Assembly: GCF_024223415.1 (NCBI RefSeq) | Contig: NZ_CP100500.1 | Direction: 5' to 3' (one strand) | DNA: 64,000 bases | From: Escherichia coli | GTDB taxonomy: Bacteria > Pseudomonadota > Gammaproteobacteria > Enterobacterales > Enterobacteriaceae | Program-made: the position numbers and the translations under genes | In this document: in pieces, positions 18,870-37,580 of the stretch | Layout: every line of letters starts with the position of its first letter | Position numbering within the stretch: the stretch's first letter is position 1 | Notes under the pieces: generated by a model | Databases searched by the model: none | Told to the model about the DNA's origin: nothing | What the model saw: only the letters and a program-made list of their open reading frames with translations

Positions 18870-18980
18870 GAACAATAATCAGGTTGAGAGGACATCATAA
18901 GGCAAGTAGATTAACGGCAGATACTTTCCCGCAACCACGGGCAAGTATTTAATTATCCATGATGAAATATGACCTAAATT

Positions 18981-19014
18981 GTTTTTTGCCCGCCGGAAAG
19001 CGGGCATTTTTTTA
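18981..19014 (+). terminator. Intrinsic terminator, candidate prophage attR core
   Basis: gcccgc cggaaa gcgggc hairpin flanked by T runs on both sides; same element recurs 7 more times downstream. Confidence 0.6.
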
Positions 19015-19227
19015 TTCTTTTGTGGTTATGGGGTCATCAGGAACCACGTGCAGATTATATTTTTGTTTTTTTGGCGTTCCTCCGGCAGCAACGAGTTCAT
19101 CAATAAGACACTGACACGCCTGAACATCCCGGGCATGTCTTAGTTTCACCTTTATTGATTTAACCTTATCCTCACCGGAGGAGAAATGCAGTTCAATCTC
19201 AATATCGTTTCTTCGGAACAATCTCAT
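19012..19227 (-). CDS. Hypothetical small protein (71 aa) in module M
   Basis: ATG at 19227 preceded by AGGGGG; intact only in this copy, truncated or degenerate in the other two M copies. Confidence 0.25.
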   Translation of the reverse strand: MRLFRRNDIEIELHFSSGEDKVKSIKVKLRHARDVQACQCLIDELVAAGGTPKKQKYNLHVVPDDPITTKE

Positions 19228-19398
19228 ACGCCCCCTGAATATATCAGAAATACTAGTATCGAAAAATGAGAAAACAGTTAGACAGGAGAAACATATTAAC
19301 ACAAATCATTTATACCTATAGATGAAATTATAATTTCATTCATGAATATGATAGATAACTATATTGTGAACAAAATGAAAAATGGCTAAATTAAAAAT

Positions 19399-19478
19399 GG
19401 GCATGGAGGAATGCCCGGTTATCAATATAATGTGACGTAGATCATTGTTTTGCCCGCCGGAGAGCGGGCATTTTTTTT
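19399..19478 (+). ncRNA. Candidate small RNA S1
   Basis: Promoter-like TTGTGA(19364)-N17-TAAATT(19387), about 80-nt unit with internal hairpin gggcatggaggaatgccc, ends in intrinsic terminator. Confidence 0.35.
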
Positions 19479-19678
19479 GCGCCTGCCATCGAGGCGCCTT
19501 CCCTGGCGCACACAAAGCAGCCCTGATTTTCCATGAAAACTTCAGGGTTGAGCTGCGGGCACAAAGTGAGTAGATTAGCTACGGGTACCTCCCCCTGACA
19601 ACAGGAAGGGTGTCCATTATCCATGATATACAAACGAAAAGTCTTGTTTTTTGCCCGCCGAAGCGCGGGCATTTTTTT
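19479..19678 (+). ncRNA. Candidate structured RNA U1 (about 200 nt)
   Basis: Bounded by two terminators; internal hairpins gcgcct..aggcgc, ccctga..tcaggg, ccttcc..ggaagg; 4 copies in window. Confidence 0.3.
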
Positions 19679-19723
19679 ATGCATCAGACAAGATACAGCC
19701 CACCCCAACTGACACCTGAAATA

Positions 19724-19752
19724 TTGCCGCAACAAAAAGAAACAGTTAAATT
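19724..19752 (+). promoter_or_regulatory. Sigma70-like promoter for hok1 transcript
   Basis: TTGCCG-N17-TAAATT, about 145 nt upstream of hok1 ATG. Confidence 0.4.
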
Positions 19753-19804
19753 ACGCGCGGGTGCCTTTCGGCTGATGGCCGGAGGGAAAACCTGAAGGCC
19801 GGAT

Positions 19805-20038
19805 GTGGAAAGGCCCCGGAAAACATTTCTGTTTAACCGAGGCCCTAACCGCATTACCTTGACAAGTGAAAGGTTAGCGCCTCTCCGGAAAAGGAGCAAG
19901 TGCTATGTCGCAAAAATCGCTTACGGCCATCACGTTCTGCGTGACGGCAATCCTCATCATCTGGATATTGCACGGTTCGCTGTGCGAAATACGGATGAGC
20001 TTCTGGGGAGCGGAGTTTGCGGCGTTCTTACAATGTAA
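19805..20038 (+). CDS. mok-like overlapping reading frame
   Basis: 77-codon frame overlapping hok1 in a different frame, as in hok/mok loci. Confidence 0.3.
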   Translation: MERPRKTFLFNRGPNRITLTSERLAPLRKRSKCYVAKIAYGHHVLRDGNPHHLDIARFAVRNTDELLGSGVCGVLTM

Positions 20039-20045
20039 GAAGTAA
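19905..20045 (+). CDS. Hok/Gef-family type I toxin (46 aa)
   Basis: MSQKSLTAITFCVTAILIIWILHGSLCEIRMSFWGAEFAAFLQCKK: TM helix plus SLCEI..AAFL.CK signature; AAGGAG 8 nt upstream. Confidence 0.6.
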   Translation: MSQKSLTAITFCVTAILIIWILHGSLCEIRMSFWGAEFAAFLQCKK

Positions 20046-20133
20046 GGAAACCGCGACGGGGGAGCAATCCCCCGTCAATCGGTTGCCAGGGTAAGGTCGA
20101 TAAGGCACCCTATCTCACAGACATGAACAAACA

Positions 20134-20167
20134 AACCCGCAGCATAAAAACTGCGGGTTTTCTTTTT
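20134..20167 (+). terminator. Intrinsic terminator after hok1
   Basis: cccgcag cataaaaa ctgcggg followed by ttttcttttt. Confidence 0.5.
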
Positions 20168-20571
20168 GGTGTCCTCACCGACTTGAAACAGTGATCAGAC
20201 TATAAGACAAAGCCCGCAATGTTGCGGGCTTACTCTACCTCTCGAAAATGTGGTCACTGCGTGGACATACGCTGATACAAATCCTTTATATCAATAAATT
20301 AAATCTTTGTTTTTTTCATCAACAATGATTTAACCTTATCCTCACCGGAGGAGAAATGCAGTTCAATCTCAATATCGTTTCTGTGGAACAGCCTCATAAG
20401 ACAACCTCCTGAATTCATCAGAAACACAGTCAACTGAAAACCAGAAAGCAGACAAACAGTGGACACACATTAATACAAATCATTTATACCTATAGATGAA
20501 ATTGCAGTTTCATCTATAACATGACAGGTAACAATATTGTGAAAAAACTCAAAACTCGTTAGATTAAAGAC

Positions 20572-20651
20572 GGACAGAGCAATGCTACTTTATCAATAAC
20601 ATGTAACCTGTACTTCCTTATTTTGCCCGCCGAAGCACGGGCATTTTTTTT
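20572..20651 (+). ncRNA. Candidate small RNA S2
   Basis: TTGTGA(20537)-N17-TAGATT(20560), terminator at 20625-20651; central region differs from S1. Confidence 0.3.
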
Positions 20652-20849
20652 GCGCCTGCCATCGAGGCGCCTTCCCTGGCGCACACAAAGCAGCCCTGAT
20701 TTTCCATGAAAACTTCAGGGTTGAGCCAAAAGCACAAAGACAGTAGATTAACCACGGGTGCCTTCCACCTGACAACAGGAAGGGTGTCCAGTATCAATGA
20801 CAGACAACTCACATTGCTGTTTTGCCCGCCGGAAAGCGGGCATTTTTTT
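20652..20849 (+). ncRNA. Candidate structured RNA U2
   Basis: Copy of U unit ending in terminator 20821-20849. Confidence 0.3.
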
Positions 20850-21219
20850 ATTCTTTTGTGGTTATTGGGTCATCAGGAACAACATGCAGATTATGCTTTG
20901 ATTTTTTTGGTGTTATTACAGCAGCAACGAGTTTATTAATAAGACACTGACATGCCTGAACATCCCTGACATATCATAATATCACTTTATTTTTTTAGCT
21001 TGTCCTTTCTGGAGCAGAAATATCTCAACATCGTTTCTGTGGAACAACCTCATTTGCCCTTGAATGTATCATAAATATCAGCATCGGAAAACCAACAGCA
21101 ATACAGAAGAAACATGTTAATGCAAATCACTTATACCTATAGATGAAATTACAGTTTTGTTCATAAATATGATAAGTAACTATATTGTGAATAAAATGAA
21201 AACTAGCTAAATTAAACGT

Positions 21220-21300
21220 GGGCATGGTGGAATGCCTCGTAATCAATAATACATGATCCGTACTTCCTTGTTTTGCCCGCCGGAAAGCGGGCATTTTTTT
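21220..21300 (+). ncRNA. Candidate small RNA S3
   Basis: TTGTGA(21185)-N17-TAAATT(21208), hairpin gggcatggtggaatgcc, terminator to 21300. Confidence 0.3.
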
Positions 21301-21497
21301 GGCGGTTACCATCGCCTCACCTTCCTGGTTCACATGAAGCAACCCTGATTTTCCATGAAAACTTCAGGGTTGAGACAAAAGCACAAAGACAGTAGATTAA
21401 CCACGGGTACCTTCCACCTGACAACAGGAAGGCTGTCCAGTATCAATGACAGACAACTCACATTGCTGTTTTGCCCGCCGGAAAGCGGGCTTTTTTT
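21301..21497 (+). ncRNA. Candidate structured RNA U3
   Basis: Copy of U unit, terminator 21469-21497. Confidence 0.3.
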
Positions 21498-21698
21498 GGC
21501 AGTTATCATAGCCGCACCTTCCTGGCACATATGAAGCAACCCTGATTTTCCATGAAAACTTCAGGGTTGAGACAAAAGCACAAAAACAGTAGATTAACCA
21601 CGGGTGCCTGCCACCTGACAACAGGAAGGGTGTCCATTATCCATGATATACAAACGAAAAGTCTTGTCTTTTGCCCGCCAAAGCGCGGGCATTTTTTT
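21498..21698 (+). ncRNA. Candidate structured RNA U4 (hok-associated subtype)
   Basis: Copy of U unit with the same 3' end as U1, terminator 21671-21698. Confidence 0.3.
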
Positions 21699-21909
21699 AT
21701 GCATCAGACAAGATACAGCCCACCCCAACTGACACCTGAAATATTGCCGCAACAAAAAGAAACGGGTGCCTTTCGGCTGATGGCCGGAGGGAAAACCTGA
21801 AGGCCGGATGTGGAAAGGCCCCGGAAAACATCTGTGTTTAACCGAGGCCTGACCCTTCCTACCGTGACAAGTGGAAGGTTAGCGCCTCTTTGTAAAAGGA
21901 GCAAGCGCT

Positions 21910-22050
21910 ATACCGCAAAAAACGATTATTGTTGGCATTTTATGCCTGACAATAACCCTGGTCATCTGGATGGTCCACGATTCGTTATGTGAATTCAGCT
22001 TTGATATCTGGGGAGCGCGTTTTGCGGCGTTCTTGCAGTGTAAACCGTAA
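21910..22050 (+). pseudogene. Hok-family toxin remnant: start codon ATA, promoter -10 deleted
   Basis: Frame encodes PQKTIIVGILCLTITLVIWMVHDSLCEFSFDIWGARFAAFLQCKP after AAGGAG, but first codon is ATA and an in-frame TAG lies 10 codons upstream. Confidence 0.55.
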
Positions 22051-22200
22051 GAAACCGCAGCGGGGGAGAAATTCCCCGCTATCCGGTTGTTGGGGTGGGC
22101 CGATATGGCGCCCTTTCCCTGTAGAGACAAAACAAAAAACCAGATTTGCCCGCCATTGAGAGGGCTTTTTTGTCACCCTCACCAGTGAGGGCATCATCAT

Positions 22201-22428
22201 TCAGAGGCGCGTAAGCCACCCGGCGTTAACATCCTGCCTGTCAACCCTGGCCGCAGAGTCTGAACGGCAGGTACCGGAAGGAGTACCAAAAACATCCCTG
22301 ACAAGTTCCGCCACCTTCCCGATATCATCAGGTGTCACATTCCTCACCTCGGCAGTGATCCGTGGCGTACCATCATCGTTAACAAGAGTGGCTTTAAAGC
22401 TGGTGCGAAGGGAAAACAACATCAACAT
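22201..22428 (-). CDS. Hypothetical protein (75 aa)
   Basis: ORF only; no recognisable motif. Confidence 0.2.
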   Translation of the reverse strand: MLMLFSLRTSFKATLVNDDGTPRITAEVRNVTPDDIGKVAELVRDVFGTPSGTCRSDSAARVDRQDVNAGWLTRL

Positions 22429-22626
22429 CCCCTCCCTTTGGTTCGTTGCACTGACGGCACGACACCATCAGGAAAAAGAAAAGCCCACAACGTCAGTATT
22501 GTGGACTTTTTTCTTCAAAGATGGACATTATCTGGACACATGAAAATAAAATCCATTTATTTTCATATAGTTAAGTACCATGCAAAAGCGCCCGCAGGCG
22601 CTTTTTAGATTCAGAAAAATTAGGTA

Positions 22627-37492: not shown

Positions 37493-37580
37493 GGTGAGGT
37501 GTCCGAGTGGCTGAAGGAGCACGCCTGGAAAGTGTGTATACGGCAACGTATCGGGGGTTCGAATCCCCCCCTCACCGCCA
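37493..37580 (+). tRNA. serW: tRNA-Ser (anticodon GGA)
   Basis: 88-nt GGTGAGGTGTCCGAGTGGCTGAAGGAGCACGCCTGGAAAGTGTG...GGTTCGAATCCCCCCCTCACCGCCA with long variable arm; downstream of infA as for serW. Confidence 0.93.

Follow-up and report, generated by a model that had tools for sequence, protein, structure and literature searches.

Toxin-antitoxin modules of the hok/Sok family are understood through the paradigm of plasmid R1 (hok/Sok, or parB), in which an unstable Sok RNA represses hok through RNase III (PMC9841398), as is also documented for sokW of prophage Sp5 (PMC8621323). Among prophage-borne modules of this kind, only hokW-sokW of the Stx2 prophage Sp5 has had a role in its prophage tested experimentally (Takada et al., 2021; PMC8621323). 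The family has been catalogued by Escalera-Maurer et al. (2026 preprint; bioRxiv 10.1101/2025.08.07.668861), in which cluster 72 comprises 46-aa peptides that also occur in P2-like and Stx prophages; this cluster is treated here as equivalent to PHROG 251 ('MokW-like host killing') and to WP_000078913.1. Because the catalogue analysed the coding sequence only, the available portions of the preprint say nothing about Sok, leader or clamp in cluster 72.

The locus considered here lies in a window of 64,000 nt from Escherichia coli (contig NZ_CP100500.1, assembly GCF_024223415.1), the window being the whole stretch of DNA that was analysed and the source of all coordinates below. We consider it probable, at roughly 0.8, that this locus represents a complete hok/Sok-family type I toxin-antitoxin module of the mostly phage-borne 46-aa group (cluster 72, PHROG 251), carried as prophage cargo at serS. 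Like R1 hok/Sok, it encodes a small putative membrane toxin with the same conserved residues, has a leader that matches the Rfam model of such loci, a 5′-3′ clamp of the tac/fbi type and a hairpin sequestering the Shine-Dalgarno (SD) sequence, and possesses a candidate antisense promoter that is equivalently placed and likewise has a 17-nt spacer, as well as an overlapping frame in the mok register. It differs from R1 in its peptide, which is 6 aa shorter and 39% identical over 31 residues in pairwise alignment, in its leader, which is ∼27 nt shorter and places the hok AUG at +147 compared with ∼+174 in R1, in an Rfam score under the gathering threshold, and in residing on a prophage whereas R1 is a plasmid. 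Furthermore, its leader frame begins ∼40 nt further upstream, before the Sok hairpin, whereas mok of R1 begins after it.

In the window, the hok locus is flanked by ogr and attR of a P2-like prophage that has inserted at serS. Simple lysogens share the order gpD-ogr-hok-attR-serS, phages Chuche, P88 and P884B11 carry the same module between ogr and int, and in active P2-like phages the module occupies a cargo slot beside other accessory genes. At the equivalent site K-12 contains only a 238-bp serS-dmsA spacer, with K-12 homology stopping at ∼22584 of the window, in agreement with the initial annotation, which had set the locus apart from the K-12 hok loci by position. Relatives are present in 1751 of 5426 E. 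coli genomes and also in P2-like phages, Stx phages and plasmids; in 933W-type Stx phages the 46-aa homolog is a separate ORF directly after lom. A literature search on hok in P2-like phages returned nothing specific. Loci of this type are widespread, have been annotated and catalogued, and are hence already known, so that the novelty implied by the initial annotation does not hold: the copy is intact but ordinary, and the hok/Sok-type module that it represents, carried here as prophage accessory cargo, is well catalogued. For comparative purposes, locus relatives were gathered by DNA similarity searches, giving a set of 17 loci of which 15 are intact, the decayed members being an Escherichia albertii plasmid copy (L016) and a second copy neighbouring the locus in the window. 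All 14 of the other intact relatives, including those of the active phages Chuche, P88 and 933W, keep the ORF, the SD, the promoter hexamers, the clamp and the antisense elements.

The coding part of the locus consists of the following.

19905-20045, plus strand: hok CDS, a 46-aa putative membrane toxin with the peptide MSQKSLTAITFCVTAILIIWILHGSLCEIRMSFWGAEFAAFLQCKK, assigned from profile matches and alignment.
19891-19896, plus strand: hok Shine-Dalgarno AAGGAG, 8 nt upstream of the ATG, read from the sequence.

By its profile matches, the 46-aa peptide belongs to the Hok/Gef family, as the initial annotation had proposed. Pfam PF01848 (HOK_GEF) matches residues 7-44 (E 9.8e-7), PHROG 251 covers residues 1-46 (E 8.5e-22), and the matching CDS is labelled 'Hok/Gef family protein' in RefSeq (WP_000078913.1). 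The top-scoring curated Hok model is NCBIfam NF007290 (HokA), yet this and NF007279 (Hok) score 30.7 and 21.3 bits against curated cut-offs of 89 and 73. A value of 30.7 bits is far under the equivalog cut-off of 89 and indicates that the peptide is no HokA orthologue; on these scores it falls outside both the K-12 HokA orthologues and the R1-type Hok subfamily, and HokA of K-12 also occupies a different chromosomal position. In alignment with R1 Hok, residues C12, T14, L26, C27, E28 and E37 correspond to C16, T18, L30, C31, E32 and E41, thereby matching all of the conserved Hok residues listed in the available part of the catalogue preprint (10.1101/2025.08.07.668861). The single transmembrane helix that had been proposed corresponds to a hydrophobic segment at residues ∼6-23, with a hydropathy peak of 2.73 over residues 8-22. 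Values of pN/pS are mostly 0.4-0.5 in the hok frame compared with ∼1 in the overlapping register, and the Hok frame is under purifying selection. The SD, found where the initial annotation had it, is kept in every aligned locus except the decayed E. albertii copy.

Toxicity of the window peptide would be expected by analogy with R1 hok/Sok, with hokW-sokW of Sp5 and with near-identical peptides reported to be toxic. Catalogue peptide 72_1621 is identical to it at 44/46 positions (differences I21M and K46Q) and 72_1589 is identical to the 933W copy; both are included in the toxicity-assay table of the preprint, the available portions of which report just three sequences as non-toxic, neither of these two among them (10.1101/2025.08.07.668861). 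The exact window peptide was not found in the catalogue supplementary tables searched, the largest of which was covered in part.

Signals for transcription and folding of the hok mRNA are arranged around this gene as follows.

19724-19752, plus strand: hok mRNA promoter, -35 TTGCCG (19724-19729), 17-nt spacer, -10 TAAATT (19747-19752).
19759-20167, plus strand: predicted full-length hok mRNA (409 nt), beginning with the invariant GGGUGCC and ending in the U-run of the terminator.
19759-19773, plus strand: tac-like 5′ clamp arm GGGUGCCUUUCGGCU, paired with 20095-20110 in the minimum free energy (MFE) structure.
19857-19869, plus strand: 5′ arm of a second long-range helix, paired with 20079-20091 in the 3′ UTR.
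19876-19904, plus strand: local SD-sequestering hairpin (AGCGC-CUCU ... GGAG-CAA-GUGCU) with conserved helices.
20054-20077, plus strand: 3′-UTR hairpin CGACGGGGGAGCAAUCCCCCGUCA, directly after the hok stop and seen also in the minus-strand view.
20095-20110, plus strand: fbi-like 3′ clamp arm GGUCGAUAAGGCACCC, in which GGCACCC is conserved and the flanks vary.
20133-20167, plus strand: Rho-independent terminator of the hok mRNA, hairpin 20133-20160 and T-run to 20167.

The promoter lies where the initial annotation had placed TTGCCG-N17-TAAATT and is supported by an alignment of 16 loci, in which the hexamers are conserved and the spacer between them is free to vary: the -35 reads TTGCCG, TTGCCC, TTGCGG or TTGAAA and the -10 reads TAAATT, TAGATT, TACATT, TAGAAT or TACAGT. 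It fits the consensus at only 8/12 positions and was missed for this reason by a generic promoter scan of 19300-20700, which reported neither the hok promoter nor the Sok-like promoter described below; comparative conservation is the sole basis of both promoter calls. The predicted 5′ end of the mRNA coincides with an invariant alignment block and with position 1 of a match to Rfam RF01794 (19759-19918; 46.2 bits, E 7.9e-9), a model named 'sok' that in practice represents the sense-strand hok leader. This match, like that of the neighbouring copy, is significant but under the gathering score of 59, which points to a divergent leader. The hairpin and U-run reported earlier also proved to be present, in the form of a 10-pair stem followed by UUUUCUUUUU, and the same terminator is found in nine aligned homologs. 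The core of the initial annotation, that this is an intact type I toxin locus of the Hok family equipped with a promoter and a terminator, is therefore supported.

Folding of the 409-nt transcript yields -181.2 kcal/mol compared with -129.6 ± 5.8 in shuffles (z -8.95). In the consensus structure 96.7% of cells are paired, and 17 pairs have changed on both sides, compared with 9.7 ± 1.8 in shuffles (0/500) and 0-4 in slid controls, the structure having been derived from the same alignment that was used to count the compensatory pairs. The tac/fbi-like clamp amounts to 15 bp in the window MFE structure; the 13 pairs of clamp helices 1-2 are 97-100% paired in 15 sequences, and their changes are one-sided wobbles only. 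Compensatory double changes are seen in 4 of the 10 pairs of helix 8, formed by 19857-19869 with 20079-20091, and in 4 of the 9 pairs of helix 18, the 3′-UTR hairpin, which is 99% paired. In 15 sequences, pairing of helices 10-11, which make up the SD hairpin, is 100%. When 11 loci were folded thermodynamically as full-length, truncated or Sok-masked RNA, the SD was unpaired with a probability of only 0.07-0.24, and neither 3′ truncation nor Sok masking exposed it. An RNA-only switch, in which 3′ truncation or Sok binding would re-pair GCCUC and thereby expose or hide the SD, was considered and rejected, the SD being ∼80% paired throughout in the 11 loci.

The initial annotation had found no evident antisense partner. 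A Sok-like antisense gene can nevertheless be placed opposite the leader, where a conserved promoter and hairpin are predicted on the minus strand between 19899 and ∼19802.

19899-19871, minus strand: predicted Sok-like promoter, -35 TTGCTC (19899-19894), 17 nt, -10 TAACCT (19876-19871).
19863 to ∼19802-19805, minus strand: predicted Sok-like RNA of ∼55-62 nt, with a variable 5′ tail, a GC-rich hairpin (19846-19810) and UUUCC; both ends are predicted.

All 17 loci share an identical -10, TAACCT, and differ in the spacer. Thirteen of them have TTGCTC as the -35, three Stx-phage loci have TTGACT with an 18-nt spacer, and the decayed E. albertii copy has TTTCTC. In alignment, the -10 corresponds to the AGGATA/TATCCT site of the R1-type locus, likewise 17 nt from TTGCGC, which we take to be the mapped sok promoter of R1. 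Because only 6/12 consensus positions are matched, the promoter is one that we infer, and since its hexamers coincide in part with the hok SD and with structured stretches of the mRNA, sense-strand constraints alone could account for their conservation. The predicted RNA folds at -27.6 kcal/mol (z -4.43); its hairpin is kept in 14 variants, with the upper stem occurring in two fully paired versions, and is followed only by UUUCC, a poor U-tract. It is complementary to the hok mRNA from ∼+44 to +105, a stretch that includes the leader start AUGUG.

If the locus is a complete module, expression would probably proceed as follows. The constitutive promoter at 19724-19752 would yield an mRNA of ∼409 nt, which the clamp (19759-19773 with 20095-20110) and the RBS-burying local hairpin would keep inert until slow 3′ trimming releases the clamp. 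An antisense RNA, short and unstable, would be made from TTGCTC-17-TAACCT on the minus strand (∼19863 to 19805) and would pair with the leader from +44 to +105; the duplex would include AUGUG, and it is proposed on that account to block leader translation and to mark the RNA for RNase III. Once the antisense RNA is gone, whether because the element has been lost, transcription has been shut off or the prophage has been induced, ribosomes that start at GTG 19805 and translate the leader frame would open the SD hairpin, and the 46-aa Hok would then be made, insert into the inner membrane and collapse the membrane potential. It is by analogy with R1 hok/Sok and hokW-sokW of Sp5 that both RNAs are proposed to be transcribed, the mRNA to be processed at its 3′ end, RNase III to cleave and Hok translation to be coupled to the leader; the same holds for the biological role.

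The same analogies suggest retention of the prophage, assistance of lysis at induction and exclusion of other phages as candidate roles, between which the present evidence does not discriminate. That the module serves as a lysis or release aid at induction, as for hokW-sokW, or as abortive protection against other phages, with no prophage addiction involved, comes somewhat short of an even chance. Such a role would accord with the place of the module in the phage cargo slot with accessory genes adjacent, with reports that R1 hok/sok acts against T4, and with the behaviour of the Sp5 system, where RecA-dependent induction is reported to bring about the disappearance of sokW and the production of HokW, and phage release to fall by half when the locus is missing (PMC8621323). 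The Hok tested in the latter case is a different one, however, since HokW has 51 aa and, as encoded by primer YO-357, begins MKQQKAM. The identity of the window locus with hokW-sokW of Takada et al. (2021) was rejected on these grounds, and as both the locus and the Hok subgroup differ, the hokW results are not simply transferable to the window peptide. 'MokW-like' is the label that phage annotation pipelines put on the 46-aa peptide, and it should not be equated with the hokW that was studied experimentally. Against a protective function, no PADLOC defence-system model matches the 46-aa peptide, and a section heading of the catalogue preprint states that hok is not enriched near defence systems (10.1101/2025.08.07.668861).

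One further element lies on the sense strand.

19794-20038, plus strand: leader 'mok-like' frame, GAAGG (19794-19798), 6 nt, GTG 19805, 77 codons, stop at 20036-20038.

The 77-codon frame from GTG 19805 (19805-20038) had been called mok-like, and in the window it does exist and has the register of R1 mok relative to hok. As a conserved feature of this Hok subfamily it does not stand, since only 5/15 intact loci have a frame that opens at +45/+47 and runs without interruption through the start of hok; the alleles of Chuche and 933W lack such a through-frame. Its register shows a pN/pS of ∼1, the position of the R1 mok ATG holds no start codon in the window locus when aligned with the R1-type locus, and a search of every frame for a conserved leader ORF found none conserved in frame, length or end point. 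With so few through-frames and no R1 mok ATG, leader-coupled translation may not operate in the subfamily.

An active locus lacking coupling of the mok type, with Hok translated directly from its strong AAGGAG and the antisense RNA acting mainly via RNase III decay or by blocking a leader standby site, is on balance unlikely. A near-consensus SD at 8-nt spacing would suit it, as would the 10/15 intact relatives that have no start-to-hok leader frame but keep all else, the missing R1 mok start, and the difficulty that the catalogue authors, in the part of the preprint available, express in recognising Mok in homologs (10.1101/2025.08.07.668861). However, the SD hairpin forms in every modelled state and must be opened by some agent, and several leader features speak against this reading: GAAGG-N6-AUGUG is conserved in 14/15 intact loci, in 12/15 loci an ORF opening at +45/+47 extends to +112 or beyond, beside the 5′ arm of the hairpin, and Sok-hairpin variants differ in length by 1 nt, which decides which of the two overlapping starts (ATG 19803 and GTG 19805 in the window) has the mok register, this being GTG in the window and in L012 and ATG in L014 and L017.

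A more general conjecture, which we regard as doubtful, is that the 46-aa phage-borne Hok group (clusters 72 and 82) has no fixed mok gene. In a dual-start version, the conserved AUGUG at +45/+47 could initiate a leader ORF of any length, its register being flipped by 1-nt indels in a swappable Sok-target hairpin; in a direct version, Hok could be translated from the strong SD with Sok acting only via decay or a standby-site block. Either would represent a regulatory variant of the R1 scheme, in which the Sok-target hairpin could be exchanged between loci, altering antitoxin specificity, free of the constraint of an overlapping frame. By itself the locus matters little, as one more intact module of a family that is found in all analysed Escherichia genomes and is enriched in prophages; a subgroup with clear clamp and Sok elements but no conserved mok is relevant to the annotation of type I toxin-antitoxin loci and to the transfer of the R1 mechanism.

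The second hok copy lies downstream of the first.

21744-22184, plus strand: second, decayed hok copy, ∼78% identical overall to the first copy.

A deletion has removed the -10 box of this copy together with the sequence from there to the start site, the ATG has become ATA at 21910, with the Hok frame otherwise open to 22050, and the native terminator has been replaced; its Sok-like promoter and hairpin are intact, and RF01794 matches it at 21764-21921 (48.1 bits, under the gathering score of 59). The state of this paralogue, that of the E. albertii plasmid copy, the SD pairing in all modelled states and the unconserved leader frame might suggest that the first copy is likewise a silent relic, comparable with many chromosomal hok loci, its SD always sequestered, no mok dependable and its mRNA locked, neutral baggage heading for decay, but purifying selection on the Hok frame, retention of all elements in 14/14 other intact relatives, some of them in active phages, the reported toxicity of near-identical peptides and the uninterrupted leader frame from GTG 19805 make this very improbable.

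Alongside the two hok copies is a rare, unannotated array of ∼8 sRNA-like genes (U and V units, 18880-21700), whose units share the conserved signature GGTTGAG-N17-TAGATTA...CCTGACAACAGGAAGG. These flanking repeats gave no Rfam match at E ≤ 0.1 and no match in phage records, and their terminator string was absent from the literature searched and from the Pas sRNA supplement. The array is more unusual than the hok locus itself; the ogr-attR cargo slot holds, in addition to the intact module, a hok paralogue that has decayed but retains its predicted antitoxin and a set of sRNA-like genes that merits its own study.

The locus at 19724-20167 (copy 1) had been described in the initial annotation as an intact Hok-family type I toxin locus, and this core interpretation is supported. 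All elements claimed for it were recovered where described:

19724-19729 and 19747-19752, plus strand: hok promoter hexamers TTGCCG and TAAATT, 17 nt apart
19805-20038, plus strand: 77-codon GTG frame (mok-like), overlapping hok
19891-19896, plus strand: AAGGAG, 8 nt upstream of the hok ATG
19905-20045, plus strand: 46-codon hok ORF
20133-20160, plus strand: hairpin, followed by a U-run to 20167

A Hok/Gef profile search of the peptide returned Pfam HOK_GEF (E 9.8e-7). As had been noted, the locus does not occupy a K-12 hok position; K-12 has only the 238-bp serS-dmsA spacer there. Loci of this kind are already known, annotated and catalogued. The 46-aa peptide matches PHROG 251 ("MokW-like host killing") over its full length (E 8.5e-22) and the NCBIfam HokA and Hok models with scores well below their cut-offs. 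Its hydrophobic core comprises residues 8-22, and pN/pS is ∼0.4-0.5 in the hok frame vs ∼1 in the overlapping mok register. Identity to Hok of plasmid R1 is 39% over 31 residues; C12, T14, L26, C27, E28, and E37 align with R1 C16, T18, L30, C31, E32, and E41, which are conserved in >80% of 1264 Hok peptides (10.1101/2025.08.07.668861). In that 2026 Hok catalogue, peptide 72_1621 (MSQKSLTAITFCVTAILIIWMLHGSLCEIRMSFWGAEFAAFLQCKQ) is identical to the window peptide at 44/46 residues, and 72_1589 and 82_1289 are identical to the copies of phage 933W and of the related locus L010, respectively; all three are tabulated among the peptides it tested by experiment, and 42 of the 45 homologs tested are given there as toxic, the three named exceptions including none from clusters 72 or 82 (10.1101/2025.08.07.668861).

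The label "MokW-like" is generic, and phage pipelines apply it to both Hok loci of 933W/Sp5-type phages. Copy 1 is not the hokW-sokW of the Stx2 prophage Sp5, as HokW has 51 aa, starts MKQQKAM (primer YO-357) and belongs to a separate Sp5 locus (Takada et al., PMC8621323). Stx phages of the 933W/Sp5 type carry two different Hok loci, hokW and a 46-aa Hok directly after lom, the latter unannotated or "hypothetical" (2662-2802 of L005, the 933W locus compared).

The window is from E. coli, and the 24 kb surrounding copy 1 are 99% identical to strains B771 and DG342-2, where P2-type tail genes, gpD, ogr, and hok (annotated "Hok/Gef family protein", WP_000078913.1) precede ∼2.6 kb without annotation and then serS-rarA-lolA-ftsK. 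Homology to K-12 ends at ∼22584. Two simpler lysogens, L012 and L014, have the order gpD-ogr-hok-(∼300 bp)-serS, and their final ∼110 nt 5′ of serS match window positions 22473-22584; hok therefore lies inside the prophage, in a cargo slot between ogr and attR. The same module fills that slot in the isolated P2-like phages Chuche (ogr, hok, com/methyltransferase, int), P88, and P884B11. Outside it, relatives with 74-81% identity occur in four settings: behind lom in Stx phages of the 933W type, between gpJ and the tail-fibre gene of a lambdoid prophage, adjoining a ykgM-type L31 paralogue, and on IncI1 and IncF plasmids. Among 5426 complete E. coli genomes, 1751 contain a match to the locus (most of it in 1677), essentially always annotated Hok/Gef; 198 phage records match as well. 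Three terminators separate ogr from the hok promoter, so the hok locus is probably a transcription unit of its own. Two small minus-strand ORFs were also seen in the cargo region, one at 19012-19227, which corresponds to a "hypothetical protein" annotated in the related locus L001, and an unannotated 75-aa frame at 22201-22428, directly before the prophage right end.

Across 17 aligned loci the hok promoter hexamers are kept while the spacer diverges freely, and the first 19 nt of the transcript (GGGUGCCUUUCGGCUGAUG; +1 at 19759) are nearly invariant. Rfam RF01794 matches the plus strand at 19759-19918 (46.2 bits, E 7.9e-9, below the gathering score of 59) and at 21764-21921, in the leader of a second, decayed hok locus (copy 2). 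Although named "sok antitoxin", this family has a consensus in sense orientation that spans the mRNA from its 5′ end as far as the hok AUG, and its matches therefore mark hok mRNA leaders rather than the extent or strand of Sok. Folding of the predicted 409-nt transcript gives -181.2 kcal/mol (z -8.95), with the 5′ 15 nt paired to GGUCGAUAAGGCACCC at 20095-20110; this clamp is kept in all sequences of a 15-sequence alignment (13 pairs, 97-100% paired, wobble-only changes). The predicted mRNA of copy 1 has the tac/fbi clamp and closed full-length form by which hok mRNAs are defined in the R1 literature (PMC9841398). In the consensus structure 96.7% of cells are paired, and both-side pair changes number 17 vs 9.7 ± 1.8 in column shuffles (0/500 reach 17); with partners slid they number 0-4, a contrast inflated by the derivation of the structure from the same alignment. 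Compensatory changes cluster in:

19857-19869 with 20079-20091: second long-range helix
coding region: helices
20054-20077: 3′-UTR hairpin

The hairpin that buries the hok Shine-Dalgarno (SD) sequence, 19876-19904, is 100% paired in 15/15 sequences. A switch operated by RNA alone is not supported, as partition-function folds of full-length, 3′-truncated, and Sok-masked RNAs from 11 loci leave this hairpin closed in all states (SD unpaired probability 0.07-0.24); some agent, such as a translating ribosome, must therefore open it.

An antisense partner had been reported as not evident; comparison of the 17 loci, however, located conserved minus-strand promoter hexamers and a hairpin:

19899-19894 and 19876-19871, minus strand: predicted Sok-like promoter hexamers TTGCTC and TAACCT, 17 nt apart
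near 19863, minus strand: predicted antisense RNA start, followed by a ∼17-nt 5′ tail
19846-19810, minus strand: GC-rich hairpin, then a UUUCC tail

The -10 hexamer is invariant (17/17). At the -35, 13 loci have TTGCTC, the three Stx-phage loci have TTGACT and an 18-nt spacer, and a decayed E. albertii plasmid locus (L016) has TTTCTC; the spacer sequence varies throughout. In alignment with an R1-type locus, AGGTTA lies opposite R1 AGGATA, also 17 nt from GCGCAA; TTGCGC-17-TATCCT is the mapped sok promoter of R1. The predicted antisense RNA folds at -27.6 kcal/mol (z -4.43), its 5′ tail is the most variable stretch of the entire locus, and its hairpin is kept in 14 variants, with two fully paired versions of the upper stem (AAACA/UGUUU and GGUUAAC/GUUGACU). 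The hexamers are weak (6/12 consensus positions), the U-tract is poor, and the conserved promoter bases also serve the SD and the folding of the sense strand; an antisense gene opposite the hok leader is therefore a well-supported prediction rather than a demonstration. The two compensated versions of the Sok-target hairpin (29 and 30 nt) are spread mosaically among otherwise close or near-identical loci, e.g., L012 vs L014, a pattern that suggests recombinational swapping of antitoxin specificity.

The mok-like frame, which begins 6 nt after GAAGG (19794-19798), is present in copy 1 in the same register to hok as R1 mok, but across the loci compared its conservation as a gene is not supported: a start codon connects to hok in that register in only 5/15 intact loci (both window copies, L012, L014, and the related locus L017), whereas stops between +104 and +135 end the frame in the others. 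At the position of R1 GAGGCAUCCCAUAUG, the loci aligned here carry GAGGCCCUAAC, which lacks a start. Leader translation is nevertheless suggested by some features. In 14/15 intact loci the motif GAAGG-N6-AUGUGG is kept, which offers overlapping starts, AUG (+45) and GUG (+47); the 1-nt length difference between hairpin versions decides which is in mok register, and in 12/15 loci the ORF from one or the other extends to at least +112, adjoining the SD-burying hairpin.

For the mechanism of copy 1, the best-supported account is the R1 scheme, modified as described above. A stable hok mRNA would be locked by the clamp until 3′ trimming made the leader accessible; a labile antisense RNA would pair with positions +44 to +105, the leader start among them, and the resulting duplex would be cleaved. 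Upon loss of the antisense RNA, leader translation would open the SD hairpin and Hok would be made. The module may serve to retain the prophage, to assist lysis at induction, by analogy with hokW-sokW (PMC8621323), or to exclude other phages, as R1 hok/sok reportedly excludes T4 (cited in PMC8621323).

Copy 2 (21744-22184, plus strand) is ∼78% identical to copy 1. A deletion extending up to the transcription start has removed its -10 box, the ATG start codon is mutated to ATA (21910), and an array-type terminator stands in place of the native one. Copy 2 retains an intact Sok-like promoter and hairpin, with an antisense 5′ tail differing from that of copy 1 at ∼10 positions, and may represent an orphan antitoxin.

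Around and between both hok copies, a single terminator (TTTGCCCGCCGGAAAGCGGGCATTTTTTT) occurs nine times, in two kinds of unit. The array (18880-22190, plus strand) consists of about eight sRNA-like genes, none annotated, which fall into two types and share this terminator. Each has conserved hexamers at -35 and -10, a 5′ hairpin, and a conserved core that is single-stranded:

∼18882-19013, 19546-19678, 20719-20849, 21368-21498, 21565-21698, plus strand: five U units
∼19399-19477, 20572-20650, 21220-21300, plus strand: predicted RNAs of three V units

In U units the promoter, TTGAGN-17-TAGATT, is invariant and the 5′ hairpin has five compensated pairs; V units have TTGTGA-17-TAAATT. Neither matches an Rfam family. 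They occur in only 30/5426 complete E. coli genomes, at 2-8 places each and annotated in none, and are absent from 50,697 phage records; the terminator string was found in three IMG/VR contigs. Palindromic motifs TATAGATGAAAT...ATTTCATCTATA recur 5′ of V units (∼19317-19356, 20479-20518, 21138-21170) and could be operator-like sites.

Farther along the window, a match to the Rfam IS102 RNA (RF00124; 49751-49947, minus strand; 88 bits, above the gathering score) indicates an IS-associated element. A tRNA gene of 85 nt (37493-37577, plus strand; 53.8 bits), whose variable arm is long, lies in conserved chromosomal DNA beyond cydD; from its GGA anticodon it is probably tRNA-Ser.
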